From: a phage
Sequence record: PZ386978.1
DNA: 64,000 bases
Reading direction: 5' to 3' (one strand)
Shown: positions 3,930-55,112 of the stretch, piece after piece
How positions within the stretch are numbered: position 1 is the first letter of the stretch
Layout: every line of letters starts with the position of its first letter
Translations under genes and position numbers: made by a program
Notes under the pieces: model-generated
What the model saw: only the letters and a program-made list of their open reading frames with translations
What the model was told of the DNA's origin: nothing
Database searches by the model: none

Positions 3930-5276
3930 ATGAGTTCGAATATCTTCAGACTTGCTGATAGATTATTCAACCAACCTTTACTAGCCACTGAATCATTAGC
4001 TCACTCAGCAGCAACTTATGTGAATAACAGATTGCTGGGTGATGTCCAAGCAGCAGTAAACTTTGATAAACCCAAAGGTGAAGCAAGAAGTCTTTTAAAA
4101 GTAAAAGATGACATTGCTATTATCCCTATTATGGGTGGTTTAACCCATCGTATGACATTCATTGATGCAATGTGTACAGGTGGATTAAGCTCTTATGAAG
4201 GTTTGCGTAGAGGCTTTGACGAAGCTTTAGCAGATGAGTCAATCAAGACTATTGTTCTGCACATCGATTCTGGTGGTGGTGAAGCTTCAGGTTGCTTTGA
4301 ATTAGCACGTCACATTATGGCTTCAAGAGGCCAAAAGAAAATTATTGCTTATGTAGATGAGTTCGCTTGTTCCGCTGCATACGCTCTTGCATCTTCTGCT
4401 GAAGAAATTATTGCATCACCAGATGCAGATGTTGGTTCTATTGGTGTAATTATGGTTCATCAGGAATTAACTAAAGCATTTGAAAAGAATGGCGTAACAA
4501 TTAACGTCATCAAAGCTGGTGAGTTTAAAGGTATGGGTTCACCATTCCAAGCACTCTCAGAAGAAAGCAAAGAAAGACTTCAAAAGAGAATTAATGATAC
4601 CTACGCAACCTTTACAGGTTTTGTAGCTGAATCTCGTAATCTCTCTGAAGAAGCTGTAAAGAATACTGAGGCGAATGTTTATTCTGCTCAGGAAGCTCTT
4701 GAACTTGGTTTAATTAACTCAATCATGTCTCAAGATGATTTCTTAAATTACTTACAAGGTTCTGAAGAGGCTCCTGTAAGTTTAAACGTTAACAATTCAG
4801 GTGAAGAAATGACTGAACAAGAAAAGCAAGAACTAGAAGCTTTGCGTCTTCAGGTTGCTCAAATGAAAGCTAAAGAACAGGAAGCTGCTTTGTCAGATTT
4901 GACTAATAAGATTTCTGCTTCTGCTGAAGCTTTTGGATTTGATGCAAAAGAAGCTGCAACGACTATTTTAGGTGCTGGTCTTGATAACCCTCTGAGTGTT
5001 CTGTTTATGAATGCTATGGAAGGTGCTAACCAGAAACTTAATGAAACTATCGCGTCCCATGCTTCTGCAATGGAAGAAAAAGAATCAGAAATTACCAAGC
5101 TGAAAGAAACTGCTGGTGCTGTTCTTGAACATTCCAACGCTATGGAAGAAGTGGGTAATGACGGCGAAGCTGATTTGGTTGAAGAAGAAAAAGAACCAGC
5201 TAAAAATGCTTCCGAAGACACCGCTGAACAACGCAAACTGGCTCTCCAGAATGCTCTAAAATCTCTTATCAAATAA
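3930..5276 (+). CDS. Prohead protease (S49/SppA-like) fused to a scaffold-like C-terminal domain
   Basis: S49-type HIDSGGGE motif in the N-terminal half; C-terminal ~150 aa are E/K/A-rich and coiled-coil-like; lies between portal and capsid genes. Confidence 0.75.
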   Translation: MSSNIFRLADRLFNQPLLATESLAHSAATYVNNRLLGDVQAAVNFDKPKGEARSLLKVKDDIAIIPIMGGLTHRMTFIDAMCTGGLSSYEGLRRGFDEALADESIKTIVLHIDSGGGEASGCFELARHIMASRGQKKIIAYVDEFACSAAYALASSAEEIIASPDADVGSIGVIMVHQELTKAFEKNGVTINVIKAGEFKGMGSPFQALSEESKERLQKRINDTYATFTGFVAESRNLSEEAVKNTEANVYSAQEALELGLINSIMSQDDFLNYLQGSEEAPVSLNVNNSGEEMTEQEKQELEALRLQVAQMKAKEQEAALSDLTNKISASAEAFGFDAKEAATTILGAGLDNPLSVLFMNAMEGANQKLNETIASHASAMEEKESEITKLKETAGAVLEHSNAMEEVGNDGEADLVEEEKEPAKNASEDTAEQRKLALQNALKSLIK

Positions 5277-31061: not shown

Positions 31062-31590
31062 TCAACTTAGTTTTGCAAACTCTCCGTGGAGTTTTACAGC
31101 AGCTTCACAGTAAGCTTTATGGGCTTCTTCAGGTGTGTCATAGTAGCCTAATGACATCTTTTTACCTTTATAGCTTATTTGTGCAACCCACCTGCCAGAC
31201 TTCTTCTTCAGGCTTACACCTTTATAGCCTGATTTATTGGTGGATAGTTTGCTTTTATTCCAAGCACTTTGGCAGTCATCTGCTTCTCTTAAGTTTACAA
31301 CCCTGTTATCAAGGGAGTCCCCATTAATATGGTCAATAACACCTTTCGGTAGCCTACCATACACGTACAGCCATGCGAGTCTGTGTGCTTTATGTGCTTT
31401 CTTGTCAAAATAGATAGTAATCTGCTTATGACCAGTTGAGTCAATCTGGATGCTCCCCGCTACCTGTCCTGCGTACTTACTATTAAAGACTTTAACAGCC
31501 CTTGAGTCACCCTCTCTACGAAGCCAAGTAAAGACCCCTGTTTCGGGGTCATAGTGTAGTAGTTCCTTTAAACGTTCTTGTGTAATCATT
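31062..31590 (-). CDS. HNH homing endonuclease with AP2-like DNA-binding domain
   Basis: HNH segment HRLAWLYVYGRLPKGVIDHINGDSLDNRVVNL; AP2-like SGYKGVS...GRWVAQISYKGKKMSLGYYDTPEEA; start trimmed to the internal ATG (MITQERLKELLHYDPETGVFTW) that has a GGTGA ribosome-binding site. Confidence 0.8.
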
Positions 31591-31599
31591 TTGTCACCA

Positions 31600-34329
31600 T
31601 TAATGCACTTCCAACCACGATTTACCAACCTTACCAGTACCAGTTACCAGTGTTTCACTCTTTAGTCCTAAGTTCTTAGAGGCTTGACCGTAATACCAAT
31701 CAGTGACAGCCTTCACCTCTGCCGTCATACTTTCTGGGCATTCCCAACTCGTCTCGTCGTGATAGGAGCACAATAAACGAGCACCTATAGCTGGTTTGCG
31801 ACCGTTCAACTTCATCAAACCTTCGTCAATCATACGACGGCAAGCAAGGTTAATTGCCTCGTTCTGAATCTGACTTTCCGAACCCATGAGCAAATAATTC
31901 AATAACTTATGTGGAGATTTACACCACAACCAAGCTCCAGCAACCTTTACAAAACCTCCTTTAGAGATTGCAGCAGTCTTACCAAACACCTCTTCAAGTG
32001 CCTTTTTAGTTGCTTTGTAGTCAGCTTCCAAGTCATCTAGCAGCTTCTTAATTTTAGGCAAACGAATAAAGTAAGTCTGTTTAGTCAGCGCACCTTCCTG
32101 AGTAGTTGCAGCTTTAATTGTCTTAGCAAACTTCTCATCACCTGCACCGAACAGTAGTGCATAGATACCATTCTTAGCTTTCTTACGACCTTTGCTAATC
32201 TCATGAAGAAGATTCTCATCCTGAGTAGCTCGACAAGTCAAGATGTCCTGCTCATCGTTCAAGCTAAAGTAAATACTGTTCAGTGTATGTGCATCAGTCC
32301 CTGAATAGACAACGTACAGGTCATTCTCAGAGTCATAGCGAAGGTACTTATCAATTTCTGGGTTGAGATACTCATCAAAATGTTTGCAGTAATAGCGTCC
32401 ATCTTCTTGACGAATGAACTCAATTTCTTCTTTACCTTGTGTTACCGCTTTGGTGAAGTCTTTATCACCCATAAAGTTACAAAGGAGAACTAGCTGGGCT
32501 GAGTTCATGTCTACAGAGACAACGTTAGTCCCTTCCTCACAAATCCACACTGCCCTCATTGGTTCCCCATAGACAGCAGCACCAGACGGTACGTTTACAA
32601 TACCATATTGTGTCATACGTCCAGTTGAAGTACCAAACACCATTGCACCAGCACTAAGGCGACCATCAGGACGAATCTGGTTCAACCAACCTTTTTCATC
32701 ATCTTTTGAGTTCTCAATAGTTCTGCGTCGGTGCATTAAAGTATAGTACTTAGCAATCTTCTGTCCAAGCTCACCTTCAATCGTATCATAAGATGATTCA
32801 GTAAGTTTTGGTGAAGTACGGATTAAGCAAGGCTCAAGCAAATCTGTATATTTCTTCACAGACCAGTTATGCTCAATGTACTGTACACCTTCATGTTCAA
32901 CATAACTCAAACCACATCGTTCCACCATTTCCTGCCACTTAGGATGTTTTGTAATCATCTTTTTATTGTCTTTGAAACGACAAACTTTGACAGGGCGACC
33001 GTCTGAGTCTTTCTTGTAGTTCCAGTCATCTGGAATCCAACCAACTGATTTCAAGTAGTCTTTAACAACTGCTACCTGAGTCATACGAGAAACTTCGAAC
33101 TCAATTGGTGTATATGGTGCATCAATCAAACCTGTGTAGCGACTTGACTCAAGTTCAAAGTGGTTAACAACGTGACTGTTATAGTACTTCACAGTTTTGA
33201 CTGTTTTTACTGGCTTCCAGTCTTTGCACTTCTTACCAATCTTTGCGTTCAACTCATTGCAAATTGCACGAGCATCCTTCATTGCTACAAAACCTTCCTT
33301 GTACTCTTCACCAGTTACAGTGTTGGTTGGTGTATAGCAATTCCTTTTCTCAATGTTAAAAATCTTTGTAGTTGGCTTACCAAATGGCTTGATTTCATAT
33401 GTTTGCATCTCGCCGTTACGTACCTGCTGACGATACTTCGTCTTAGGGTACTTGGTAATTCTTTTCAGACCATCTGCATGACCGAATGTTTCAACATACT
33501 CATTCCAAGCTTTTGCAAACTCTTCTCCAGTGACTTTACCTTTGGTCTTAATAGTTGGAGGAAGATGTGGTTCAACCTCTGAAGCAAGCTCATTAGTCAA
33601 TTTGTCAAGTTCCTTCACATGGAACTCCATAAGCTCTTTATCAGCTTTCCAGCCATTAATAGCTTGTTGACTCATCCAGAAAGATGTCTCTTTAGCTCGC
33701 ATGTAAGTCTCATAAGTGTCTATACCACACTTCTTAAGCTTGAGATACTCGTTATCAAGTGCCCGTTTAGTTTTGGCGTTAATACGGATATCTTCTACAA
33801 CACGAGTGAAGATTTCTGCATTCCACACACCCCAATGTTCAATCTCTGGTTTACGGACACCAACACGAGCACCCCATGCAGCCAAACCATGAGCACCTTT
33901 ATAACCCTTTGGAGTTGGTCTATCCATCCACTGAACACGAGACTGGATAAGAGAATCCTGAAAGAAATTACTCCACGGCTTACATTTTGGATTATCAAAG
34001 TTCCATAAATCAGGTGCAATGTGATTGAAAACCCACCAGTCATAGCCGAGACCATTATGGATGCAAAGACGTTTTGCCTTTAACGCAAATTCAACACCTT
34101 CACGTAAGCCGCCCTTGATGTACTTGGTATACTTGTGACCGAGGATAGGCTCATCTGTAAAGACCCATACAGGAGGCTCTTCATCGTCAGATTTATAGTC
34201 TGCAAAAGCCATTACGTGAACTTTAGTGAACTCAAGGAGTAAACCATCAGTCTCTGTATCACCAACTAAATGTAAGTTTTTAAAATCTACGTTTTCCATT
34301 TTTACTCCCTCTAAAATCATTAACCTCAT
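31600..34329 (-). CDS. DNA polymerase, family A (T7-like), with 3'-5' exonuclease domain
   Basis: 909 aa; exo motif VGDTETDGL; motif A-like VSVDMNSAQLVLL; motif B-like KKAKNGIYALLFGAG; motif C SYHDE. Confidence 0.9.
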   Translation of the reverse strand: MRLMILEGVKMENVDFKNLHLVGDTETDGLLLEFTKVHVMAFADYKSDDEEPPVWVFTDEPILGHKYTKYIKGGLREGVEFALKAKRLCIHNGLGYDWWVFNHIAPDLWNFDNPKCKPWSNFFQDSLIQSRVQWMDRPTPKGYKGAHGLAAWGARVGVRKPEIEHWGVWNAEIFTRVVEDIRINAKTKRALDNEYLKLKKCGIDTYETYMRAKETSFWMSQQAINGWKADKELMEFHVKELDKLTNELASEVEPHLPPTIKTKGKVTGEEFAKAWNEYVETFGHADGLKRITKYPKTKYRQQVRNGEMQTYEIKPFGKPTTKIFNIEKRNCYTPTNTVTGEEYKEGFVAMKDARAICNELNAKIGKKCKDWKPVKTVKTVKYYNSHVVNHFELESSRYTGLIDAPYTPIEFEVSRMTQVAVVKDYLKSVGWIPDDWNYKKDSDGRPVKVCRFKDNKKMITKHPKWQEMVERCGLSYVEHEGVQYIEHNWSVKKYTDLLEPCLIRTSPKLTESSYDTIEGELGQKIAKYYTLMHRRRTIENSKDDEKGWLNQIRPDGRLSAGAMVFGTSTGRMTQYGIVNVPSGAAVYGEPMRAVWICEEGTNVVSVDMNSAQLVLLCNFMGDKDFTKAVTQGKEEIEFIRQEDGRYYCKHFDEYLNPEIDKYLRYDSENDLYVVYSGTDAHTLNSIYFSLNDEQDILTCRATQDENLLHEISKGRKKAKNGIYALLFGAGDEKFAKTIKAATTQEGALTKQTYFIRLPKIKKLLDDLEADYKATKKALEEVFGKTAAISKGGFVKVAGAWLWCKSPHKLLNYLLMGSESQIQNEAINLACRRMIDEGLMKLNGRKPAIGARLLCSYHDETSWECPESMTAEVKAVTDWYYGQASKNLGLKSETLVTGTGKVGKSWLEVH

Positions 34330-38773: not shown

Positions 38774-38843
38774 TAGTTATAAAAGAGAGGGGTTCACACC
38801 CTTCTTTGAAGAAAAAAGTTTAAATAAATTTCAGGAAGAGTGT

Positions 38844-38872
38844 TTGACAAAGGTTGATAGGTTCTATAGAAT
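38844..38872 (+). promoter_or_regulatory. Sigma70-like promoter candidate (TTGACA-17-TAGAAT)
   Basis: Hexamers read directly, just downstream of the primase-helicase stop. Confidence 0.45.
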
Positions 38873-39025
38873 GCTCTACATGAAATGTGATGGGGGTGTT
38901 GAGGTAGAAGAAAAGTTCCATCACAGTATTATTACAGTCACTATTACTATACCTCAGCATAATATTGGTTGGCTGTTTATAATTAAAGAAAATGTGTTTG
39001 AATATCAAGTATATCGGAGAATATC

Positions 39026-39175
39026 ATGAAACACTCTAAAGCATTTGAAAAAGTTTTTGGGGATTCCTTAAAAGCCACTGCTGGAAAACCAGCAAAATAC
39101 TATGAAGAGAAACGTGTAAGAACTGGAAAAACTGCACGTAAAGCAGCTTCTAAAGATAAGCACAACTTCCAGTAA
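39026..39175 (+). CDS. Small basic protein (49 aa), below the ORF-track length cutoff
   Basis: ATG with GGAGA ribosome-binding site 5 nt upstream; product MKHSKAFEKVFGDSLKATAGKPAKYYEEKRVRTGKTARKAASKDKHNFQ. Confidence 0.4.
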   Translation: MKHSKAFEKVFGDSLKATAGKPAKYYEEKRVRTGKTARKAASKDKHNFQ

Positions 39176-39182
39176 TTAGTAT

Positions 39183-39211
39183 TTGACAATAGAGTATCAA
39201 CAAATTAGAAT
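39183..39211 (+). promoter_or_regulatory. Sigma70-like promoter candidate (TTGACA-17-TAGAAT)
   Basis: Hexamers read directly, 37 bp upstream of the SSB-like gene. Confidence 0.5.
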
Positions 39212-39247
39212 TGGTACTCTTCATAAATTGAGATAGAGGTTTAAATA

Positions 39248-40105
39248 ATGTCTAAAGTTGTTAAAATGAAAGCTCCGGTAGAGAAGTACAATGGTACTGA
39301 ACGTCAAACTCTGCGTTACCTGCTGAAAGATGTCTGGTTTTATTACCTGAACACTTCACCACGTCCGGGAAAAGGTAAGTCTATTGATAAGAAATTCCCA
39401 GGAAAAGATTGTAACTACAGCGTATCAATTCTGGCAGAGGACGGTAACAAACTGTTTAAAGAGTTTACTAAGTCTAAGAAAAATCCAGAAGGCTGGGATA
39501 AAGTTACTACTGAAGCAGTTGATGCAGATGACTTCGAAGAGAAGTTTGGTTGTAAACCACCTTTTGAAGCAGACACTTACTACATCTTGAAAGTAAGTCG
39601 TGCAGCAGCTTATAAAGATGGTGCTGTATGGACAGCTAAACAGTCATTCCCTGTTATGCTTATTGAAGAAGTAAATGGTAAGCGTGTAGCTGTTAAACAG
39701 CCGATGAAGAAAATCAAAGCTCAAGCATCTGATAAACATGAAGATGACAAGAACTATGATGTAATTCATCCAGATATTGCAGTTGGTAACGGTTCTTTTG
39801 GTAGTGTGATTCTTTCTACTCACTTCTACACTTTTGAGAACAATGTTCTGACAAAACCTATTCAGGAGCAGTTTATCATTGATACTCTTGTGCCTTACAC
39901 TGGTGGTAATGGTACTAACGGTGAACCTGAACTGGATGAAGACGAACTGGCTATGCTTGGTCTTGATGGTGTCGAAGATAACGGTGAAATCACTGAAGAA
40001 GACGCAACAGACCATAAATCTTCGAATGATTCTGATGATGGCGATGACGAAGACTTGCCAGACCCAGATGACGAAGAAGATGAAGACTTCGATACAGAAG
40101 ACTAA
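39248..40105 (+). CDS. Single-stranded DNA-binding protein (T7 gp2.5-like) with acidic C-terminal tail
   Basis: 285 aa; strongly acidic C-terminus ...DDGDDEDLPDPDDEEDEDFDTED; sits between primase-helicase and exonuclease genes. Confidence 0.6.
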   Translation: MSKVVKMKAPVEKYNGTERQTLRYLLKDVWFYYLNTSPRPGKGKSIDKKFPGKDCNYSVSILAEDGNKLFKEFTKSKKNPEGWDKVTTEAVDADDFEEKFGCKPPFEADTYYILKVSRAAAYKDGAVWTAKQSFPVMLIEEVNGKRVAVKQPMKKIKAQASDKHEDDKNYDVIHPDIAVGNGSFGSVILSTHFYTFENNVLTKPIQEQFIIDTLVPYTGGNGTNGEPELDEDELAMLGLDGVEDNGEITEEDATDHKSSNDSDDGDDEDLPDPDDEEDEDFDTED

Positions 40106-40122
40106 TCTCTAAAAGTTACTTT

Positions 40123-40151
40123 AAAGCCCTGTACTTAGTATGGGGCTTTTT
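40123..40151 (+). terminator. Intrinsic terminator after the SSB-like gene
   Basis: Stem AAAGCCCT / GGGGCTTT, loop GTACTTAGTAT, then a T-run. Confidence 0.5.
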
Positions 40152-40167
40152 CATATGGAGAGCCATA

Positions 40168-41214
40168 ATGGAGAAGTACACATTAACAAAGCTTCCCGAT
40201 TCAGTTACACATGTTTTTATTGACTCTGACAGCATTGCCTATAAAGGTGCTTGTGTAGTTGAGAAAGCAAAATATAAATATGTCAATAAACTCACAGCAG
40301 AAGAATCTGATTCGTTTGATAATGCAAAAGATGCTGCAAGATGGTTAGCAGACCAGAGAATCCTTGTGGAAGAGCTTGGTCTGACATTTGATGAAGATGA
40401 ATGGGAAAGACAGACTTGGAAAGAAGCTAAGAGTGAAAAAGAAGCTATCATGGCTACTCAACAGGTGCTTCAGGAATGGCTTAAGGTTGTTGGTAAAGAA
40501 AGAACTTGGGTAGGTTATTTAACAGAGAAAGGTGTGCATAAACATAAAGACGTTAAAGGTCTTGAGCACCAATATCAAGGCAACCGTAAAGATGCTGTCA
40601 CACCAACACACCTAGTTGCTTGTCGTGAGTATCTTCTGTCAAGACCAGAGTTCAAACTAATTCTTGATGGGTTTGAAGCCGACTCTATCGTTATTGCTAA
40701 AGCTGAAAAGATGGGTAAAAAGGCTGCCTTAATGAGTATTGATAAAGACCTTCGCCAAGCTGAAGGAACTTACTGCATTGATATGACCTATGAAAAGTCA
40801 CCTTTGATTTTCATTGCTGATAACAACGTTGGTGAAATTTGGGATTGCCCAATAAAATCAACACCAAAAGCTAAGAAGACAGTTGGTGTAGGTTTTAAAT
40901 TCCTTTGTTATCAAGCTGTGGCTGGTGATAACGCGGATAATTATTTTGGTTTAAAGGGCGTTGGTAAGGCTACTGTAATGAAAGCCCTTGAAGGTAAAAC
41001 CACCTACAAAGAGTGTCTTGATGCAATTTATGAGCTTTATGCTAAGAAAGAGTCGTACACTTATGTCTCGTGGGATGGTCAAACAATTACCAGAACACCC
41101 TTAGAGTTAATGCAGCAACACTTTTTCTTAGCTTATCAGGAAAGAAACAAGAAAGACGATTTCACTTTTGATAAGTATGGGTGGACACCAAATGTTAACT
41201 CAACAAACTCTTAA
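40168..41214 (+). CDS. 5'-3' exonuclease / RNase H (FEN family)
   Basis: 348 aa; N-terminal VFIDSDSIAYK; helix-hairpin-helix-like GDNADNYFGLKGVGKATV. Confidence 0.75.
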   Translation: MEKYTLTKLPDSVTHVFIDSDSIAYKGACVVEKAKYKYVNKLTAEESDSFDNAKDAARWLADQRILVEELGLTFDEDEWERQTWKEAKSEKEAIMATQQVLQEWLKVVGKERTWVGYLTEKGVHKHKDVKGLEHQYQGNRKDAVTPTHLVACREYLLSRPEFKLILDGFEADSIVIAKAEKMGKKAALMSIDKDLRQAEGTYCIDMTYEKSPLIFIADNNVGEIWDCPIKSTPKAKKTVGVGFKFLCYQAVAGDNADNYFGLKGVGKATVMKALEGKTTYKECLDAIYELYAKKESYTYVSWDGQTITRTPLELMQQHFFLAYQERNKKDDFTFDKYGWTPNVNSTNS

Positions 41215-41692
41215 AGAGCACCTGCACTATGACCCCGAAACAGGGGTCTTTACTTGGTTAGTTGATAGAACAGGTAAGGCCAAAGCTGGCTCAGTAGCAG
41301 GTTTTAAACACCATAGCGGTTATATCTATATAAAACTCTTCGGAAAAAGATATGCAGCACACAGACTGGCATTCTTGTATATGAAAGGATACCTCCCAAA
41401 ATTTGTTGACCACAAGAATTGTATCAGACACGACAACTGGTTCGACAATTTGAGAGAGTGTAGCAGGTCAGACAACAACTGTAATGCAGTCAAAAGAAGA
41501 GATAATAAGTCTGGTGTGAAGGGTGTATATTACCACAAGCAAAGAGGTAGATGGGCTGCACAAGTTAAGCATAATAAAGTTTGCTACCATCTAGGCCTAT
41601 TTGACTCTGTTGCTGAGGCTGAAAAAGTTGTCAAAAAGAAAAGAGAAGAACTCCATAGAGAGTTTACAAATCACGGAGAAACTCATGAATGA
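41192..41692 (+). CDS. HNH homing endonuclease with AP2-like domain (paralogue of 31062..31590)
   Basis: MLTQQTLKEHLHYDPETGVFTW N-terminus; HNH segment HRLAFLYMKGYLPKFVDHKNCIRHDNWFDNL; AP2-like SGVKGVYYHKQRGRWAAQV; start trimmed to the ATG with a GGGTGGA ribosome-binding site. Confidence 0.8.
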   Translation: MLTQQTLKEHLHYDPETGVFTWLVDRTGKAKAGSVAGFKHHSGYIYIKLFGKRYAAHRLAFLYMKGYLPKFVDHKNCIRHDNWFDNLRECSRSDNNCNAVKRRDNKSGVKGVYYHKQRGRWAAQVKHNKVCYHLGLFDSVAEAEKVVKKKREELHREFTNHGETHE

Positions 41693-42189
41693 TTAAAGTT
41701 AAAGGTTTTGGGAGTTGCCCCACTTATGGTCACTGGATTTCACTATGTGGTGAAGTTGACCCAGCAAAGCACTTTGGTTTTGTCTACCTAGTGTACTGCA
41801 AAAAGACTGGACAGTACTATTTGGGTAAGAAGCAGCTTAACAGTGTGACCAAAAGAAAAGTTGCTGGGAAGACTCGGAAGAAGGTAGTCACTAAGGAGAG
41901 TGATTGGATGACTTACGAGACTTCTTCTGAGTATATTAAAAAAGATATTGATAGCTTTGGAAAAGAATTTTTTGACTTTTACATTATTCAAACCTACTAC
42001 ACAAAAGGTGGCCTAGTCTATGGTGAAGCAAACCTTCAACATAAATTCGATGTAATGACAAAAAGGATTGACTCGAAGCTCAGACTCTTCTACAATGCCA
42101 ATATTGCAGCAATTAAGTTTATTACTAAAGAAACTTATGAAGATGCTGAAAAAAGAATCCATAAGGTAATGAAAGCAAATTGTGCTTGA
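41689..42189 (+). CDS. GIY-YIG family endonuclease (candidate)
   Basis: 166 aa; N-terminal FGFVYLVYCKKTGQYYLGKK resembles the GIY-(10-11 aa)-YIG motif. Confidence 0.55.
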   Translation: MIKVKGFGSCPTYGHWISLCGEVDPAKHFGFVYLVYCKKTGQYYLGKKQLNSVTKRKVAGKTRKKVVTKESDWMTYETSSEYIKKDIDSFGKEFFDFYIIQTYYTKGGLVYGEANLQHKFDVMTKRIDSKLRLFYNANIAAIKFITKETYEDAEKRIHKVMKANCA

Positions 42190-42195
42190 TAACTA

Positions 42196-42459
42196 TTGAG
42201 AGAGAATAAAATGTTTAACAAAAGTAAAGCTGTGAGTCATGTAGCAAAAGTTGACAGCAAGATTGAAGAACTTGAGCGCATCCTTGCAAATGCTAGAGAG
42301 TCAATAATTAAAGAAGTTGAAGCTGTTGAGTCTCAAATGCAGCACCTAATGCTTAAACGTCAAGAGCTACGTGAGCATCTAGAATATATTGAAACACGAG
42401 AGCTAAAGGTTAACAAATATTTTAAGGAGTCCGAATGTTTAACTCAAGAGAATCAGTAA
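42196..42459 (+). CDS. Hypothetical coiled-coil protein
   Basis: 87 aa ORF. Confidence 0.4.
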   Translation: MRENKMFNKSKAVSHVAKVDSKIEELERILANARESIIKEVEAVESQMQHLMLKRQELREHLEYIETRELKVNKYFKESECLTQENQ

Positions 42460-43190
42460 AAAACTGGAACCTTCGTTGTGGAAACACTCAAAAGCAACCT
42501 TACAGTGATGAGTATTGGGAATCTTTAAAATCTCAATCTCTGTGTATGCTTGAAGAAGCAAAAGAGCTTGTAAAAGCAATTGAAGAGAAAGACCCCATTG
42601 AGACACTGGATGCTCAGGCAGATTTGCAATATGTTCTTGACGGCTTGATTTATCTGTCACAACATGACCATAACGGTGCTATGAAAGCTGTTTGCCATAA
42701 TAATGACCTGAAGTACACAGATGACTATGAAGAAGCTTTAAAACGTCTTGCAGACATTGAAAAGCGTACTGGTCAAGAGTGTATTATCAGAATGTCAGTA
42801 GTTGATGGTAAAGAGTGGTATGCTATTGTTCGTGCAGCCGATGGGAAGATTATGAAGCAATCAAATCTCCCTAAAGTACAGCTTGGTGAATACATTGTAG
42901 AACTTGAAAGCCAAGAACTTTTTGTGGTAGTATCTGAGACATGCGTTATCTGCAAAGGTATTGTAGGTAGCTTAAAGGATTTGGGTGTAGATGGTTTTGT
43001 AGAAGTTAATCCAATTACCTCTAAAGCAGATAAAGACTTCTGTAAAGAGAACGGACTATGGATTGCAGATATTGTCTACTATGATGGTGAGCAGTTCCAT
43101 GTAACCTCATACCCGAAACTGAATTATGATGCTAATAACCTGAAGTGCTGGTTAAAAGGGGTTGGTTATAATGGATTCACAGAACATTAA
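42435..43190 (+). CDS. MazG-like nucleotide pyrophosphohydrolase domain protein with unknown C-terminal domain
   Basis: 251 aa; N-terminal acidic helix pattern LEEAKELVKAIEEKDPIETLDAQADLQYVLDGL. Confidence 0.55.
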   Translation: MFNSRESVKNWNLRCGNTQKQPYSDEYWESLKSQSLCMLEEAKELVKAIEEKDPIETLDAQADLQYVLDGLIYLSQHDHNGAMKAVCHNNDLKYTDDYEEALKRLADIEKRTGQECIIRMSVVDGKEWYAIVRAADGKIMKQSNLPKVQLGEYIVELESQELFVVVSETCVICKGIVGSLKDLGVDGFVEVNPITSKADKDFCKENGLWIADIVYYDGEQFHVTSYPKLNYDANNLKCWLKGVGYNGFTEH

Positions 43191-43494
43191 TAAAGAGGGT
43201 GTGGCTCAGAAGAGCCACTTCTCAAACTACAATATTTCTATGACGGTGTTTATGAATGACCCGTTACTAGAAAAATATGGTGAGACTCCAGATACACTTC
43301 TGGACAATGAACAAGTTTTAAAAGCAGTCCTGTACAAATACGGGATTGATATTGAGAAAGAGTATTCTTTTGAAATCTGCCAACACAGAAACACTTTTGG
43401 TAAAGTTGTGATGGCTCCACTCTTTATGGGCGTAGAAAGGACTGACTATGGCTGGTTGTATCTGAAAAGAAACTTGGAGAAATACCGTGTCTAA
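43162..43494 (+). CDS. Hypothetical protein
   Basis: 110 aa ORF. Confidence 0.45.
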   Translation: MVIMDSQNINKEGVAQKSHFSNYNISMTVFMNDPLLEKYGETPDTLLDNEQVLKAVLYKYGIDIEKEYSFEICQHRNTFGKVVMAPLFMGVERTDYGWLYLKRNLEKYRV

Positions 43495-43822
43495 AGCAAA
43501 AAAGCTATCTTATGATGACATTATCTCAGGTGCTAAGTTAGGTGTTGATAGTATCGGACAAGATGTTAAGCACGGAGACACAGTCATGTACTGTGATGAC
43601 CGAAGAGGTAGAAGTGCAATCTTGTTTGGAAGAATTGTTTGCAAGATGAGAGGTAATTACGTTGTTGCAGACATGGATGTGAACGTTACACAAAAACTTG
43701 AAACAATTATGGATGCTAGCGCACCATCATGGTTCCTAAATTGTATGCACACCTCGTCAGTCACAAAAGTAAGTGATAAGTTTTACGATATGTGGCAGAA
43801 TGAGCAAATTTTCAAGATTTAA
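43487..43822 (+). CDS. Hypothetical protein
   Basis: 111 aa ORF followed by a UUCG terminator. Confidence 0.45.
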   Translation: MSKAKKLSYDDIISGAKLGVDSIGQDVKHGDTVMYCDDRRGRSAILFGRIVCKMRGNYVVADMDVNVTQKLETIMDASAPSWFLNCMHTSSVTKVSDKFYDMWQNEQIFKI

Positions 43823-43828
43823 ACTATG

Positions 43829-43850
43829 GAGCCTCTTCGGAGGCTCTTTT
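43829..43850 (+). terminator. Intrinsic terminator with UUCG tetraloop
   Basis: GAGCCTC-TTCG-GAGGCTC followed by TTTT. Confidence 0.7.
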
Positions 43851-43868
43851 CATCTGTAGGATTCAAAA

Positions 43869-46103
43869 ATGATTAAGACAATTAAAAAATCAAACGGTAC
43901 AGTAGTAAGCTTTGACCCAGAAAGACTGAACAAGTGGGCATCATGGGCAGATAAGCGTGGAATTATCTGGTCAGAAGTCACTATGGAAGCCATGAAACGT
44001 GTCTATGAAGGATGCACTACAAAAGAGATGCACCAAGCCATGATTGATGTTTGTGTTGATAAACAAACTCAAGAGTACTCAGACATGGCTGGACGGCTAC
44101 TTTTGGGTATTATCTACAAAGAAGCCTTTGGAGGCTTTACTAAGGTTCCTACACTGATTACCTTCGTTAAAAATATGGAGAGAGCAGGACTTTGGGAGAA
44201 GATGGACTATTCACAGGAAGAGCTTGAATACCTGCAAGGTTACATCGTACACTCAAAAGATATCTCTTACGGTTATGCAGTCTTGAAACAGTTCAGAGAC
44301 AAGTATGGTATCCGTGATATTAAAACGGGAAGACTTTTTGAGTCACCACAATTTATGTTTATGGGTATGGCTATGAAAGCTTTTGAGAAGCAACCAAAGC
44401 ACCGTAGACTGCAAGATGTTATCAAGCTGTACACTTACCTATCTGACCTGAAGATTAACGCTCCTACGCCTTATTTAAATGGTTTAAGAGCAACTAAATC
44501 AGGTTATGCGTCATGCTGTTTGATTAAGGCAAATGATACTGCTGAGTCTCTCGGTATTGCTGCAAAGGTTGCTTATGATATGACCACAAAGCAAGCTGGT
44601 ATCGGTATGCTGATGGAGACACGCACTATTGGTGATGGTATCCGTCAAAATACGATTGAGCACATGGGTAAACTGCCTTATTACAAGCTTGTACGTTCAT
44701 CTGTAGAGGCAAACAAACAGAAGAGCCGTGGTGGTTCAGCTAATAACTTCTACACTGCTCTAGACCCGCAGATTGAAGATTTACTGCGTTTGAAGCACCC
44801 TACAACGGTTCCTTCTAAACGTATTAATGAGATGGACTACTCATTCGGCACAAACGATTATTTCTGGCAGTGTGTTCAGTATGATACAGATTGGTTGCTA
44901 TTCTCTTACAAAGATGCACCAAAACTCTATGACATGTTCTACACAGCATCTGCTGATGAGTTTGCTATGGCAGTTGGTCACGCAGTACATTCAGGAGTTA
45001 AGCACAGACGAGTAAAGGCTCGTGAAATTGCTAAGCTGTTTATTCAACAGCGTTATGCTACAGGTCGTGTGTATCCATTCTTCACAAATAATGCGAACAC
45101 ACATACACCATTTAAAGAGCCTTTGAAGATGTCAAATCTTTGTATGGAAATTGTGTTGCCAGTGTATGGTTTTGAGAAAGAGACAGACCTTTACAGAGAC
45201 GATGCTGTGAAAGAGGATGGTGAGGTGGCTCTTTGCTTCCTAGCTAGTTTGGTTGCAGGGAGAATTTCAGAAGATGAATACGCTGACGTTGCTTATTATG
45301 CTCTTGCAATGGTTGACTCCGTTATTGACCTTATGGATTATCCGTATCCGTCGATGCGTAACCACGTTCAGAAGCGTCGTTCTGTTGGGATTGGCCTTAC
45401 AAATGTGGCTCATTACCTTGCGAAGAACTACGTGAACTACTCTTCACGAGCAGGTAAAACGAAACTTCATGAACTTGCAGAGATGCACTCTTACTACCTG
45501 CATGAAGCCTCTCTGAGACTTGCTAAAGAGCGTGGAGTTCCAGAGTACATGAAGTTCACTAAGTATCCTGAAGGGTGGGTTCCTCCAAAGACAGCTAACA
45601 AGAAGATTGATGAAAAGCATGATGCGAAACTACGATATGATTGGGATGACTTAGCACAACGTATCAAAGAGAATGGTGGAATCCGAAACTCTGTATTAGA
45701 AGCTTACATGCCTAATGAGAGTTCTTCACTAGCAACTAATACGACAAATGGCTTGTACCCAATTCGTGACTTTATTTTAACTAAAAAGTCTGCAACTGGT
45801 AACGTGCTGTTTATTGTTCCAGACTACGAAGAGTTGAAGTATGTCTATGAAATTGCTTGGGATATTGACACCTTTGATATGATTGACTGTTATGCAATTG
45901 TTCAAAAGTTCACTGGTCAAGCTATCTCTTCAGACTTCTATGTTGACTATTCAAAGTCTAAGAAGGTATCATTGGCTCAAGCTCTGAAGTACATGATTTA
46001 TGCCAACTCGGTAGGTATGAAAACCATGTACTACCTTAACAGTCGCATTGGTGTAGGTAAATCTGCACTGCAAGATGCTTATTGCGAGGGTTGTGGTGTT
46101 TAG
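43869..46103 (+). CDS. nrdA: Ribonucleotide reductase class I large subunit
   Basis: 744 aa; ATP-cone-like N-terminus; followed by the small subunit and a glutaredoxin. Confidence 0.9.
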   Translation: MIKTIKKSNGTVVSFDPERLNKWASWADKRGIIWSEVTMEAMKRVYEGCTTKEMHQAMIDVCVDKQTQEYSDMAGRLLLGIIYKEAFGGFTKVPTLITFVKNMERAGLWEKMDYSQEELEYLQGYIVHSKDISYGYAVLKQFRDKYGIRDIKTGRLFESPQFMFMGMAMKAFEKQPKHRRLQDVIKLYTYLSDLKINAPTPYLNGLRATKSGYASCCLIKANDTAESLGIAAKVAYDMTTKQAGIGMLMETRTIGDGIRQNTIEHMGKLPYYKLVRSSVEANKQKSRGGSANNFYTALDPQIEDLLRLKHPTTVPSKRINEMDYSFGTNDYFWQCVQYDTDWLLFSYKDAPKLYDMFYTASADEFAMAVGHAVHSGVKHRRVKAREIAKLFIQQRYATGRVYPFFTNNANTHTPFKEPLKMSNLCMEIVLPVYGFEKETDLYRDDAVKEDGEVALCFLASLVAGRISEDEYADVAYYALAMVDSVIDLMDYPYPSMRNHVQKRRSVGIGLTNVAHYLAKNYVNYSSRAGKTKLHELAEMHSYYLHEASLRLAKERGVPEYMKFTKYPEGWVPPKTANKKIDEKHDAKLRYDWDDLAQRIKENGGIRNSVLEAYMPNESSSLATNTTNGLYPIRDFILTKKSATGNVLFIVPDYEELKYVYEIAWDIDTFDMIDCYAIVQKFTGQAISSDFYVDYSKSKKVSLAQALKYMIYANSVGMKTMYYLNSRIGVGKSALQDAYCEGCGV

Positions 46104-47975: not shown

Positions 47976-49172
47976 ATGAACAAAGTACAGATTATTAAAA
48001 AGAACGGCTCACTCGAAGAACCTGATATCAAAAAAGTTTTAGCAGCAGTCACAAAGTCAGCTAATAGGGTTGGGTATAAAGAACTCCCACCAGATGTTAC
48101 CCAAGCTCTTGAGTCAGCATTTATGAGGATTCTGGTAAAATCCACTAAGCAGAATAATTTACTCATTTCAGTAAATGATATTCACAGTATTGTTGAGGGT
48201 GCTTTGGCAGAAGTCAATCACGAGATTTATGAGTCTTACTCAACATATAGAAATTACCGTAAAGAAGTTGCTCAGAATTGGGATGAGCTTTATCAGAAGA
48301 CCAAAGATACACTCTTCTTAGGTGACCGAGAAAATGCTAATTTTGACAGCAGTTTAATTTCTACAAAAGGTTCAATTATTCGTGGTTATCTGACTAAAGA
48401 AATCTTTAAACAGTACCATTTAACACCAGAGGAACTTGAAGCCATTGAAAAAGGGTTTATCTATATCCATGATTTAAGAGACCTAATTTTTGGTGGTATC
48501 AACTGTTGCCTGTTTGACATTGGTAAAGTCCTGAAAGGTGGCTTTGAAATGTCTGGCATTGAATATTGTGAACCAAAGTCTGTGCTGTCGGCCTTACAGG
48601 TTATTGGTGACGTAGTTCTTTCAGCAACTGCACAGCAATTTGGTGGCTTTACTTTAGCAGAGATTGATAAGGTACTCGTACCGTATGCTAAGAAGTCTCT
48701 ACGCTATCATGCTGAGAAAGCAGCATCTTATGGTATTCCTAAAGAACATTACCACAATTATGTCATGGAGCAGTTACAGATTGAGCTAACTCAAGGTTTC
48801 CAGTCACTTGAAATGAAACTCAATACTGTGCCTTGTAGCCGTGGGGATTTTGCATTCACAACTTTGACATTCGGGTTACTTGACTCAGATATGTCCAATG
48901 AAGATAACCGACTGCAATATATGATTGCAAGTACTCTCCTAGATGTTCGTATGAATGGACAAGGTAAGAGCAAGAAGCCTGTTGTATTTCCTAAACTGGT
49001 TTATATTTATGACCAGAAGAGACACGATGAGAATATCTGTCAAGGACACCTGTACAGTAAAGCTATTGAGTGTTGCTCTAAAGCAATGTATCCAGATTTC
49101 TTAAGTGTATCTGGTCATGGTGCTGTAGCAGAGGCTTTTGAGCGTTCTGGCAAGGTTATTTCACCGATGGGT
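47976..49172 (+). CDS. nrdD: Anaerobic ribonucleotide reductase, exon 1
   Basis: 399 codons ending ...ISPMG; the in-frame stop at 49173 is the first intron triplet; last exon base is U. Confidence 0.85.
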
Positions 49173-49914
49173 TAACAAGCTCTATAGCTCATCTAAAACG
49201 TGCCTAAACAGGGAAACTCTACAGGTGTAGACAATCCTGTGCTAAATGATGTACGATGTAAGAAACTATATGACATAGGAGTATTACATGCCAAATTATC
49301 ATGTTACTGAAGACGGAAGAGTCTTTAGGAAAAATGGTGTAGAACTTAAGCAGTGGAAATCCAACACTGGGTATATGAAAGTGAGGTTTTACGGTAAGAA
49401 GAATCGTGACATGTATGTTCATAGGTTAGTTGCTGAGAAATATGTACCTAACCCGAACAATCTTCCAATTGTAAAACACAAAGATGATAACAAACTGAAT
49501 AACCATGCTTCTAACTTAGAATGGGGAACTCATTCTGAGAATGTTAAAGAAGGTTATGAAAATGGTTGCTACAAGTTTTGTAAGCGTTCATATGCTGTGA
49601 AGGCTACACACAAAGTAACAAAAGAAGTTATTGTTGCGAACTCGATACGAGAGTTGTCCAAGATGCTTGGGTATAATCGCAAGACTATCTCTTCAATACT
49701 GAAGGGTGTAAAAGAATATAATAACTTTGAACATGAATTTGAATACATCTAAATGCCGAACGACTAACCGTGATGAATGTAGCGGTGTAGGGTCAAGCGA
49801 CTCGAAATGGTACGCTACTTAGAAATAAGTAGAAGATATAGTCTGGACTTACTGGCGACAGTAAGCAGCTTGAATAAAGCGGGGTAAGCTTAGCGAACTT
49901 ACCTGAACAACAAG
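49173..49914 (+). mobile_element. Group I intron in nrdD carrying an HNH homing endonuclease gene
   Basis: Exon 1 ends in U and the intron ends in G (...AACAAG); intron 3' region contains AGATATAGTCTGGAC; joining the exons gives ...SPMG|CRAFLSPY.... Confidence 0.7.
49288..49752 (+). CDS. Intron-encoded HNH homing endonuclease
   Basis: 154 aa; HNH segment HRLVAEKYVPNPNNLPIVKHKDDNKLNNHASNLEWGTHSEN. Confidence 0.8.
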   Translation: MPNYHVTEDGRVFRKNGVELKQWKSNTGYMKVRFYGKKNRDMYVHRLVAEKYVPNPNNLPIVKHKDDNKLNNHASNLEWGTHSENVKEGYENGCYKFCKRSYAVKATHKVTKEVIVANSIRELSKMLGYNRKTISSILKGVKEYNNFEHEFEYI

Positions 49915-50862
49915 TGTAGAGCATTTTTATCACCATACCATAACGAACATGGTGAAGAGTTTTATGTAGGTCGTGCTAATATTGGTGCTGTATCTTTGAA
50001 CTTACCAATGATTTACCAGTATTCTAAAGAGAATGGCTTAGATTTCTGGAAAGAGCTTGATAAGTACCTAGAAATGATTCGTAGTTTCCACAAGAAACGC
50101 TATGAAATGATTGCCAATATGCCAGCAAGTTCTAATCCTCTTGCATTTACACAAGGTGGTCTGTACAAAGGAACTAAGAAGCCTACTGACAGGGTTGGTT
50201 GGGATATTGTGAAGTCCTTCACAGCTTCTTTTGGGGTTACTGCGCTTGATGAGCTATCTGTTCTTGCTGAAGGTAAACGACTTCATGAAGTTGGAAGCTA
50301 TAGTTTTGCATATGATGTTCTGGCATACATCAACATGAAAACTGAAGAGTTTAAGAACGAAGATGGCTTCTTGTATGCGGTATATGGCACTCCAGCAGAA
50401 TCACTTTGTGGAACTCAGTTAAAACAGTTCAGAGATATGTTTGGCGTTATTAAAGGTGTCTCTGACAAGGAATACTTTACAAACAGTTTCCATATGAATG
50501 TTGCAGCAGACATCTCACCATTTGAGAAGCAGGACTTAGAAGAACCATTCTTCCATATCTGTAGAGGTGGCAGAATCCAGTATGTCAGGGTAGCTAACCC
50601 AGAAAACTTAACAGCACTTAAGAGTTGTATTACGAGAGGTATGTTGAAAGGTTTCTATCAGGGACTTAACTTTGACTTAGCAATCTGTGAACATTGTGGT
50701 AACAGACCAAAGGCTGATGTTGAAGAATGTGAGGTTTGTCATTCACATGACATCTCTGTGATTAACAGGGTGTGCGGGTACTTGTCATTCACAAAAATTA
50801 AAGGTCAGTCTCGAATGAATGATGCAAAAATCGCTGAGATTCGTGACAGGATTTCTATGTAA
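49915..50862 (+). CDS. nrdD: Anaerobic ribonucleotide reductase, exon 2 (glycyl-radical domain)
   Basis: Open frame from CRAFLSPY...; C-terminal glycyl-radical motif RVCGY; the ORF-track start at 49996 is a TTG inside the exon. Confidence 0.85.
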   Translation, partial: CRAFLSPYHNEHGEEFYVGRANIGAVSLNLPMIYQYSKENGLDFWKELDKYLEMIRSFHKKRYEMIANMPASSNPLAFTQGGLYKGTKKPTDRVGWDIVKSFTASFGVTALDELSVLAEGKRLHEVGSYSFAYDVLAYINMKTEEFKNEDGFLYAVYGTPAESLCGTQLKQFRDMFGVIKGVSDKEYFTNSFHMNVAADISPFEKQDLEEPFFHICRGGRIQYVRVANPENLTALKSCITRGMLKGFYQGLNFDLAICEHCGNRPKADVEECEVCHSHDISVINRVCGYLSFTKIKGQSRMNDAKIAEIRDRISM

Positions 50863-53387: not shown

Positions 53388-53903
53388 ATGTATCTGTCAA
53401 ACCTGAAACGTTCGGCTGCAATGTCAGTTCTAAGACTCAGCTTTGAGGAACGTCAAGAGTTCATTGACTCCCACCAATATGACCCTTCTAACTCGAATCA
53501 CATGGTTCTTTGGAATCGTGATAGTACTCGTGAAAGAGCACTATTCCGCTACTACCCACATTACACCGTAGACAACCTGTATGAATGTTTTGTTGTGAAG
53601 AACACCATTACAGTACTCAATAAACTTTGCAGATACACAGGTAGTCAATCCTTCACATTAGGACATCACAAACCTGTTACAAAGGGTGGTGAGCATCACT
53701 GTGCAAACTGGTTTATCCAGACTAGACTTGATAACCAGAGGCAAGGTGATAGTCTTTTAAGTACCCCTAAGATGTCCTATGAAGAGCAAGAGAAATATAT
53801 CAAAAATAATATGCCAGATGTGCTTGACAACAACTATACAGATTTGGCAATATCTCTCCTGTTGAAGTTCGAGACAGTTTATAGGGCAACTTATAATGGC
53901 TAA
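53388..53903 (+). CDS. HNH endonuclease (free-standing)
   Basis: 171 aa; HNH-like GHHKPVTKGGEHHCANWFIQTRLDNQRQGD. Confidence 0.6.
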   Translation: MYLSNLKRSAAMSVLRLSFEERQEFIDSHQYDPSNSNHMVLWNRDSTRERALFRYYPHYTVDNLYECFVVKNTITVLNKLCRYTGSQSFTLGHHKPVTKGGEHHCANWFIQTRLDNQRQGDSLLSTPKMSYEEQEKYIKNNMPDVLDNNYTDLAISLLLKFETVYRATYNG

Positions 53904-54174: not shown

Positions 54175-55067
54175 GAGAGAAAACTATGAAAACATCTATC
54201 CGTGTTACAGTTCATTCACCAACTAAAGGGACTCATGAAGAAGAGTTTAACATCATCCAATTCCCTTCTGGTGAGATTGGTGGACACTTTTCACCAGAGT
54301 TTGTTGATTTCACTGCTTATGCAGCATCATCCATCAACAATGTGGTTATGATTGTAAAAGGTTATGATAAGGACACATTGTTTGCTGTGGCACTTGCTAA
54401 AGAGGCGGTGGATGACTTAGTACCTCATAAGTTTGCTATGAAGACTGTTATCTTTTACTATTTGCCAAATGCACGTTACGACCGTCACATGTTTAAAGGT
54501 GATGCAGCAGCTTTGAAAGTGTTTGCACAACAGGTTAATGCAATGGGTTTTGATGCAGTCTGTGCAGTTGACCCTCACAGTTACGTTCCAGACAACCTGT
54601 TTAACTGCTTCCAGAGTATTCCTCAAAAGGAGATTGCAGTTCACTATGCAAATGACCCTCTGATTGATTACTTAGTAGCCCCAGATGCAGGTGCTTCTAA
54701 GAAGATTGCAGAGACTGCTAAAGAGGTGGATAAACCATATATCACAATGTCTAAAGTGCGTAACCTTAAGACTGGTGAAATTACTGGTATGCGAATCCTT
54801 GATGATGTTGATTTGACAGATAAAACCGTCATGATTCTGGATGATATCTGTGATGGTGGTCGAACCTTCGTAGAAGCAGCAAAACATCTTCGTGAAGCAG
54901 GTGCAAAACGTGTGGAACTTTATGTAACACATGGTATCTTCTCTAAAGATGTTGAAAACCTTCTTGACAACGGTATCGACCATATTTACACTACGAACTC
55001 TTTAGGCGAAGCTAAAGACCGTGGTTTAACACATTATAGTCAAGTTACTGTAGCAAACCTTGATTGA
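54171..55067 (+). CDS. Ribose-phosphate pyrophosphokinase-like protein (candidate ADP-ribose pyrophosphokinase of a NARP1-type pathway)
   Basis: 298 aa; phosphoribosyltransferase-type binding loop VMILDDICDGGRTF; immediately upstream of a NadV-like gene. Confidence 0.75.
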   Translation: MREKTMKTSIRVTVHSPTKGTHEEEFNIIQFPSGEIGGHFSPEFVDFTAYAASSINNVVMIVKGYDKDTLFAVALAKEAVDDLVPHKFAMKTVIFYYLPNARYDRHMFKGDAAALKVFAQQVNAMGFDAVCAVDPHSYVPDNLFNCFQSIPQKEIAVHYANDPLIDYLVAPDAGASKKIAETAKEVDKPYITMSKVRNLKTGEITGMRILDDVDLTDKTVMILDDICDGGRTFVEAAKHLREAGAKRVELYVTHGIFSKDVENLLDNGIDHIYTTNSLGEAKDRGLTHYSQVTVANLD

Positions 55068-55076
55068 AAGTTTATA

Positions 55077-55096
55077 GGGGCTTAAAAGCCCCATTT
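55077..55096 (+). terminator. Weak terminator-like hairpin
   Basis: GGGGCT-TAAA-AGCCCC followed by ATTTT. Confidence 0.35.
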
Positions 55097-55112
55097 TGAG
55101 AGAGATTAAAAG

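Follow-up and report, generated by a model that had tools for sequence, protein, structure and literature searches.

In phage T7, endonuclease I (gp3, the product of gene 3) and the exonuclease gp6 serve together in recombination, in the debranching of concatemers and in the breakdown of host DNA, as the notes of the T7 record state and as is established in T7 biology. Phage T4 encodes nucleases of the GIY-YIG type. Its endonuclease II (DenA) is a single-domain GIY-YIG enzyme whose specificity depends on the modified DNA of T4, and its homing endonuclease SegE, an active enzyme, gave the family PF19835 its name. In the intron-encoded I-TevI, a GIY-YIG catalytic domain (PDB 1LN0) is tethered to a zinc finger and a helix-turn-helix, and the HNH homing endonucleases of the I-HmuI and T4 MobE types carry NUMOD repeats. 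In the present study, we compared with these systems two endonuclease genes that stand in tandem in a 64,000-nucleotide stretch of phage DNA (sequence record PZ386978.1; the window, on which positions are counted unless another genome is named). The first open reading frame (ORF A, 41192-41692, + strand) is of the HNH type and the second (ORF B, 41689-42189, + strand) of the GIY-YIG type. The window comes from a Felix O1-like phage (Felixounavirus), being 97.5% identical over 39200-44000 to Salmonella phage Felix O1 and to many other Felixounavirus genomes.

The two genes follow a conserved 5'-3' exonuclease gene (40168-41214, + strand), whose FEN-type product is a distant homologue of T7 gp6 (E 3e-6 by BLASTP); it matches phrog_107 'exonuclease' with E 4e-66, and its matches to Pfam 5_3_exonuc are weak. 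The last 23 nucleotides of the exonuclease gene overlap the start of ORF A, and the stop of ORF A overlaps the start of ORF B in the sequence ATGA (41689-41692, + strand), a geometry of translational coupling. Each ORF encodes 166 residues; for ORF A the count starts at the ATG, and a TTG upstream of it, at 41168, likewise lies in the open frame. The tandem arrangement, the strand and the overlap were confirmed in the sequence as the original prediction, an earlier reading of the letters alone, had given them. Its placement of the pair between the exonuclease and a MazG-like gene also holds, except that a small coiled-coil ORF (42196-42459) additionally intervenes before the MazG-like gene. 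Promoter-like sites in 39000-44000 were not enriched (14 found, 12.8 expected by chance), and therefore no separate promoter is claimed for the HNH gene.

On balance, we consider it probable that ORF A is a mobile HNH gene and that ORF B, a core gene, supplies the exonuclease with an endonuclease partner in the way that gp3 does in T7. This view draws on the domain identity, fold, conserved residues, distribution, selection and gene neighbourhood of these genes, and on the mutual exclusion between relatives of ORF B and endonuclease I homologues.

The GIY-YIG gene: family, active site and conservation

The product of ORF B matches the Pfam model PF19835 (SegE_GIY-YIG) with 94 bits at a cut-off of 25, and in the fold comparison its nearest structural match is the catalytic domain of I-TevI. 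Profile search and fold thus agree with the GIY-YIG call made in the original prediction. The family profile aligns to T4 SegE with a probability of 96%. Sequence similarity to I-TevI is marginal (hhalign probability 7.6%), and a PDB sequence search with ORF B gave nothing meaningful. ORF B also matches phrog_447, which carries the label 'NAD synthetase', evidently a misnomer. A word-indexed search for homologues returned 9 proteins, and the exhaustive search returned 1269 clusters at E <= 1e-3.

Ten residues (G30, Y33, Y44, G46, K48, W73, Y76, S79, E113 and N136) are invariant among 115 diverse aligned homologues, and all ten are kept in ORF B. Y33 and Y44 are the tyrosines of the GIY and YIG motifs, and E113 and N136 are the residues that we take to correspond to E75 and N90 of I-TevI. 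T4 SegE shares with ORF B the conserved Tyr, Tyr, Gly-Lys, Tyr-x-x-Ser, Glu and Asn positions. The canonical catalytic Arg (R27 of I-TevI) has no clear counterpart; the helix that bears it is missing from ORF B, and its region is a 19-residue basic beta-hairpin which SegE does not have. In SegE, too, the alignment shows no Arg at this place, and the invariant Lys (K48) is found in both proteins; R132 of ORF B is invariant among its closest relatives. Thus, of the catalytic Arg and Glu on which the original prediction had let its GIY-YIG call depend, the Glu is present, together with the Asn and both Tyr, and the Arg is not clearly so. Judged by these residues, ORF B looks like an active nuclease, with catalytic activity predicted from the conserved site. 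The basic beta-hairpin (residues 51-70) was also considered as a mark of the short, exonuclease-linked forms and was rejected, as the spacer is equal in length and charge in short and long homologues.

ORF B is a single-domain protein, in contrast to I-TevI. No second domain was found in Pfam, only a tail of about 30 residues with one helix follows N136, and no NUMOD, helix-turn-helix or other DNA-binding module was seen in ORF B. SegE, at 205 residues, is longer than ORF B, which lacks a C-terminal DNA-binding domain. Many of the close homologues are built differently: 32 of the 115 have NUMOD3, and a few others have NUMOD1, an I-HmuI NUMOD-like module or a helix-turn-helix. One long homologue with an extra module (P0009, 270 residues) adjoins a terminase gene, a typical setting of a homing endonuclease.

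The distribution of ORF B is that of a resident gene. By blastn it was found in 298 records, at one place in each, and by tblastn in 373 records, whose Ounavirinae-type subset has the same organism tallies as the exonuclease (302 records). In every record with a Felix O1-type exonuclease (about 302), ORF B is present in single copy directly after it. Felixounavirus, Mooglevirus, Zyzzx and Prophecy all have the genes in the order of exonuclease, ORF B, small ORF and MazG. Protein identity to the window is 61% (Zyzzx) and 59% (Prophecy) for ORF B, compared with 60% and 55% for the exonuclease and 42% and 39% for MazG. The ratio of nonsynonymous to synonymous substitution rates (dN/dS) of ORF B is 0.04-0.13, with synonymous sites saturated in the deepest comparisons. 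By these comparisons, ORF B is a fixed, vertically inherited core gene of the Felix O1-like phages, under purifying selection and not mobile. It lacks both the C-terminal DNA-binding domain and the sporadic distribution of the mobile Seg-type genes, being fixed across the whole phage subfamily. Being universal in single copy, strongly constrained by purifying selection and without a DNA-binding module, it is not operationally a free-standing homing endonuclease. The claim of the original prediction that it is one does not stand, since universal conservation at this locus was an outcome that the prediction itself had named as speaking against it. As a side observation, records of 'Campylobacter phage A132/A126' and a protein of Methanobrevibacter gottschalkii contain Felix O1-like sequence at 96-99% identity, which is likely contamination or mislabelling in public data.

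Relatives of ORF B and the endonuclease I slot

The nearest relatives of ORF B outside the Ounavirinae, 38-51% identical and mostly of 130-230 residues, were examined on 66 environmental viral contigs. On these contigs, the gene lies in a replication module of the T7-like kind that also encodes a primase-helicase, a family A polymerase and ribonucleotide reductase. Upstream DNA was sufficient in 65 contigs, and in 62 of them an exonuclease gene stands immediately upstream on the same strand, usually overlapping the GIY-YIG gene. This exonuclease is of the FEN type found in Felix O1 (phrog_107) in 31 contigs, and in another 31 it is an unrelated PD-(D/E)XK enzyme with a Cas4 domain (phrog_1990), which was identified by means of PHROGs, as Pfam left the upstream gene unnamed in half of the contigs. 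The cultured roseophage DSS3_VP1 has the same overlapping order of exonuclease and GIY-YIG gene. Since the linkage extends to two non-homologous exonuclease families, it cannot be explained by sequence-specific homing.

As a control, 160 loci were chosen by the exonuclease alone (80 FEN and 80 Cas4, with flanks of 2.5-6 kb). The commonest gene in the slot of the Cas4 set is phrog_945 'endonuclease', whose representative is 40% identical (E 1e-29) to T7 endonuclease I, the Holliday junction resolvase encoded by gene 3. Among the FEN-selected loci, 55 have only the GIY-YIG gene, 14 only endonuclease I, 11 neither and none both; among the Cas4-selected loci the corresponding numbers are 17, 48, 15 and 0. 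Taken together, a GIY-YIG gene is found in 72 of the 160 loci, an endonuclease I homologue in 62, neither in 26 and both in none (Fisher's exact test, p = 1e-23, uncorrected for phylogeny although the contigs are not phylogenetically independent). When the exonucleases were clustered at 70% identity, 26 clusters had GIY-YIG loci, 31 had endonuclease I loci and none was mixed; at 60% identity two clusters were mixed, which implies recent swaps. In 60 of its 62 loci, the endonuclease I homologue follows the exonuclease downstream on the same strand, immediately in 30 and further away in 30. In the FEN lineage nearest to the query, the GIY-YIG gene is present in all 49 contigs with enough downstream DNA, and none of the 66 loci selected by their GIY-YIG gene has endonuclease I. 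The 26 loci with neither gene may hold further types of endonuclease in the slot or may carry the gene elsewhere in the genome.

In these T7-like environmental modules, the slot downstream of the exonuclease therefore holds a gp3 homologue or an ORF B-type gene and never both, so that relatives of ORF B share the position of endonuclease I and have a distribution complementary to it. The two proteins are not homologous. The fold of gp3 is PD-(D/E)XK-like and that of ORF B is GIY-YIG, with no sequence similarity between them, and the job that ORF B would share with gp3, junction resolution, is proposed from the slot and the distribution. Neither the window nor the complete genome of Felix O1 has an endonuclease I-like ORF, and the Felix O1 RefSeq record has no resolvase annotation. 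Eukaryotic GIY-YIG nucleases provide a precedent for such an activity, as Slx1 and At-HIGLE are described in two papers as resolving Holliday junctions and flaps (PMC9071465, PMC3045582). No paper was found in the literature that proposes a junction-resolving or exonuclease-partner role for a phage GIY-YIG protein.

We suggest that ORF B descends from homing endonucleases, has been domesticated and would now serve as the general endonuclease of the phage. It is probably coupled in translation to the 5'-3' exonuclease. It would nick or cleave branched intermediates of replication and recombination, and possibly host DNA too, and in both cases would give the exonuclease its points of entry. A wider proposal, which we put forward more tentatively and regard as possible, is that the exonuclease-linked ORF B types form a previously unrecognised, GIY-YIG-fold class of phage junction-resolving or debranching endonucleases, which would go back to Seg-type homing endonucleases that lost their DNA-binding domain, and which, in T7-like replication modules, would repeatedly have exchanged places with T7 endonuclease I, from enterobacterial myoviruses to marine phages.

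The HNH cassette and other endonuclease genes

ORF A has the catalytic domain of an HNH endonuclease. It matches Pfam HNH_3 with 46 bits (cut-off 24.8) over residues 54-96 and phrog_99 'HNH endonuclease' with E 3e-73, and in the region of its His...Asn...Asn motif, VDHKNCIRHDNWFDNLRECSRSDNNCN, the DH, DN and N positions are as in its alleles and its paralogue in the window, both described below. Its AP2 region scores 31.4 bits in Pfam, just under the cut-off of 33.3, matches phrog_33760 with E 3e-41 and aligns with that of the paralogue, which reaches 50.3 bits. The HNH catalytic motif is common to ORF A and the I-HmuI and T4 MobE types, and the sequence match to I-HmuI (1U3E) is weak. As in those types, ORF A is free-standing beside a conserved gene of replication or nucleotide metabolism and is polymorphic in presence and absence; it differs from them in having a putative AP2-like DNA-binding module in place of NUMOD repeats.

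The gene forms a cassette of about 500 bp exactly at the junction of the exonuclease gene and ORF B. This junction is empty in AYO145A, Bas63, Hafnia phage Zyzzx and Erwinia phage Prophecy, and in genomes without the HNH gene the exonuclease stop overlaps the ORF B start directly. A 72-nucleotide probe spanning the empty junction was uninterrupted in 163 phage records, and of the 199 records that match the allele of the window (allele a), only 43 have it in full length. At the same junction, as the alignments show, VpaE1 and EC6 carry a second allele (b), with a protein 56% identical to ORF A, and bumzen and Moogle a third (c), with a protein 52% identical. There are thus at least three alleles of ORF A at one junction. 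The cassette brings its own version of the last few exonuclease codons, so that its start overlaps the new end of the exonuclease gene by the 23 nucleotides mentioned above, and its stop overlaps the start of ORF B. The insertion point looked for in the original prediction by comparison with relatives could thus be defined for ORF A, and ORF B occupies its place in every record that has the Felix O1-type exonuclease.

The flanks of the cassette are diverged. Identity was followed in sliding 100-nucleotide windows against AYO145A and Bas63, both without the HNH gene, and against VpaE1 and bumzen. With the HNH-less genomes, the baseline identity over most of 38800-44100 is 96-100%, interrupted away from the cassette by a small number of short dips such as the one to 82-85% at 38900-38999. 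A trough of divergence is centred on the cassette. Identity to these relatives drops progressively from 96-99% to about 70% in the upstream arm of the trough (40600-41190, + strand); in the downstream arm, the 5' third of ORF B (41700-41900, + strand), it is 80-90%, returning to 97-100% from 41900. The flanks of VpaE1 are like those of the window (90-99%), and inside the HNH gene the identity is only 58-61%. Bumzen is 100% identical to the window at 42500-43299 and 43400-43799 and 99-100% from 42000, and 73-85% identical in the 3' half of the exonuclease gene. A signature of co-conversion is therefore present, with about 600 bp of diverged flank upstream and about 200 bp downstream. This pattern is the one expected for a homing gene that carries flanking DNA with it and would mark a boundary of genetic exchange.

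Because it is polymorphic in presence and absence, multi-allelic and fixed to one junction beside a conserved replication gene, with diverged flanks, ORF A behaves like a free-standing, mobile HNH-AP2 homing endonuclease gene. These empty sites, alleles and flanks support what the original prediction had said of it. In mixed infections, its product would cut relatives without the HNH gene near the junction of the exonuclease gene and ORF B. The likeliest target would be the stretch of greatest divergence, in the 3' half of the exonuclease gene. Recombinational repair would then copy in the cassette with about 600 bp of upstream and about 200 bp of downstream flank. As an element it is ordinary, a textbook mobile gene that is already annotated.

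A pair of records with related names was observed at this junction: VpaE1 (NC_027337.1) has allele b, and VpaE1_ev78 (LR597663.1) has an empty junction, identical to that of AYO145A over 71 of the 72 probe bases (100%). If the two are a laboratory-derived pair, the cassette was lost or exchanged on an experimental time scale.

Within ORF A, a scan for terminator-like structures found a 30-nucleotide block, TATGACCCCGAAACAGGGGTCTTTACTTGG (41228-41257, + strand; codons 13-22), with the hairpin GACCCC-GAAACA-GGGGTC (41231-41248). Written as TATGACCCCGAAACAGGGGTCTTTAC(T/G)TGG, the block encodes YDPETGVFTW. It has one variable base, a T to G change in bumzen, across alleles a, b and c, Moogle and the paralogue. 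No base of the hairpin varies among the five aligned sequences, and the synonymous sites of the block are unchanged where its flanks have diverged. The paralogue, 43% identical to ORF A, holds an exact 26-nucleotide copy (31528-31553, - strand). A search with a 40-mer gave 229 places in 177 phage records; the annotated ones among the matches listed are all in genes called HNH, AP2, homing endonuclease or hypothetical, and almost all in Felix O1-like phages. The block may serve for regulation, as an RNA hairpin, or for recombination, as a handle by which cassettes are swapped. An unusually stable fold was rejected, the folding energy of the surrounding 101 nucleotides having z = -1.1.

The original prediction had counted five putative homing endonucleases in the window, which is an over-count; there are three clear HNH genes and one GIY-YIG gene. 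The HNH gene that it had placed downstream of the DNA polymerase gene (31062-31628, - strand) is the paralogue, and its HNH_3 match of 54 bits together with the AP2 match bears the HNH call out. At 49288-49752 (+ strand), an HNH ORF does lie between the halves of a split nrdD gene (47976-49175 and 49996-50862) in an insertion of about 820 bp. The intron that the original prediction had assumed there is less clear, as the group I intron match at 49685-49865 (33.1 bits, E 2e-6) is below the Rfam threshold of 50. The Bas63 annotation has a joined nrdD with an internal homing endonuclease, and nrdD is intact in the Felix O1 type strain. The Felix O1 genome paper of 2010 reported six HNH homing-endonuclease-like sequences and no introns (PMC3185647). 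Felix O1 has an extra HNH gene (83214-83705 of its genome) between the genes for ribose-phosphate pyrophosphokinase and nadV, which in the window adjoin one another without it (55067-55113), so that the window and the type strain do not have the same set of HNH genes, despite about 97% identity in the region compared. The remaining gene of the five, at 53388-53903 (+ strand), had been called HNH. It has no Pfam HNH match and belongs to phrog_3500, of unknown function. By position and length it corresponds to Bas63 gp77 (bas63_0077), which is reported to counter retron Ec67 and is described as GIY-YIG-containing (PMC11482910). No resemblance of its product to ORF B or the SegE-type profile was found. 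As the ORF B orthologue gp77 was rejected, since by locus tags that orthologue is bas63_0057; in Felix O1 it is ORF107.

Alternative explanations and significance

Several findings weigh against the role proposed here for ORF B and against the mobile reading of ORF A. The catalytic Arg has no clear counterpart, as described above. ORF B is split, by a frameshift or as a two-piece match, in three or four records, among them EC6 (2989-3490 of the fetched locus), Citrobacter phage BSwM KMM4 and Escherichia phage EcF-vB; this could be sequencing error or an occasional, tolerated loss, and it bears on essentiality. The exclusion statistic ignores phylogeny, rests on flanks of 2.5-6 kb and leaves 26 loci with neither gene. 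In T4-like cyanophages, a relative stands in a different gene context. About 64 Synechococcus phage records have a short relative, which among the matches listed is 33-37% identical over 67-76% of ORF B, and the one in S-CAM7 (142 residues, 3935-4363 of the fetched locus) lies near ribonucleotide reductase genes and not next to an exonuclease. Homing endonuclease genes tend to be neighbours of conserved replication genes, so that little can be concluded from adjacency alone, and ordinary mosaic recombination could produce the divergence trough around ORF A.

The explanation nearest to the original prediction would make both genes free-standing homing endonucleases from independent invasions, with ORF B as an older insertion that is still capable of homing. 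It can appeal to the name and membership of the SegE family, to I-TevI as the nearest structure, to the many two-domain close homologues with NUMOD3 or helix-turn-helix modules, including the one beside a terminase gene, and to GenBank submitters, who often name ORF B 'GIY-YIG homing endonuclease'. We nevertheless judge it very improbable, as it is already contradicted by distribution: ORF B is found once and at the same position in all of the roughly 302 exonuclease records, across genera diverged to nucleotide saturation. In addition, its dN/dS resembles that of the neighbouring replication gene, a DNA-binding domain is missing, and its relatives are tied to two non-homologous exonuclease families and are mutually exclusive with endonuclease I homologues. 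Mobility apart, ORF B could be an endonuclease that degrades host DNA in the manner of T4 endonuclease II, the GIY-YIG enzyme of single-domain build. It would nick host DNA, the exonuclease would yield nucleotides for the adjacent nucleotide-metabolism genes, and it would have no role on branched phage DNA. DenA belongs to a different GIY-YIG subfamily, and for ORF B no mechanism that would spare phage DNA is apparent. Moreover, the gene with which the relatives alternate, T7 endonuclease I, is primarily junction-resolving, and no other resolvase is annotated in Felix O1. A role on host DNA only is thus unlikely in our view, and it partly overlaps with the partnership that we prefer, since T7 gp3 does both jobs.

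The remaining explanations concern the purpose and the activity of the protein. A nuclease of counter-defence or of competition between phages, directed for example against retron msDNA (the multicopy single-stranded DNA of retrons), satellite DNA or the DNA of a competitor, would have parallels in the domesticated nucleases of homing-endonuclease type described with such roles in a study on phage ICP1 (PMC8263062), and in Bas63 gp77, the different gene whose action on retron Ec67 and whose GIY-YIG label were mentioned above. Such genes are usually accessory and variable. ORF B, in contrast, is universal, lies in the replication module and is coupled to an exonuclease across distant phages, hosts and environments, and the available portions of the PhageMaP text list other Bas63 genes as counters with no mention of gene 57; we therefore hold this explanation to be distinctly improbable. 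That ORF B has become catalytically dead, and assists or regulates the exonuclease without being an enzyme itself, as the unalignable Arg might suggest, is hardly credible. Both Tyr, the Glu and the Asn are invariant in the 115 homologues, selection retains exactly the residues of the active site, and T4 SegE, likewise without an aligned Arg and with the same invariant Lys, is active. The partnership of ORF B with the exonuclease thus stays the probable reading.

In public records, ORF B is named 'homing endonuclease', 'NAD synthetase' (by way of phrog_447) or 'hypothetical'. The 'NAD synthetase' label on a GIY-YIG nuclease is a propagated misannotation, present in many RefSeq and GenBank phage records, including those of marine cyanophages and of roseophage DSS3_VP1. 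What appears to be new here, from the comparison of sequences, is that ORF B is a core, non-mobile and exonuclease-coupled gene whose relatives alternate with endonuclease I, and these are variants of known themes. The HNH part of the locus matters less than the ORF B part. With three alleles at one junction and many empty sites, the HNH cassette offers a natural system for the study of homing and co-conversion outside T4.

Salmonella typing and biocontrol make wide use of Felix O1-like phages, in whose genomes no junction-resolving enzyme is annotated. If the proposed role is true, ORF B would fill this place, and the propagated labels 'NAD synthetase' and 'homing endonuclease' would be corrected. 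To our knowledge, the list of phage resolvases currently comprises the endonuclease VII, endonuclease I, RusA and RuvC types, and ORF B would add a new fold to it. It would also be a clear case in which the nuclease of a selfish element has been domesticated into the core DNA metabolism of a phage.

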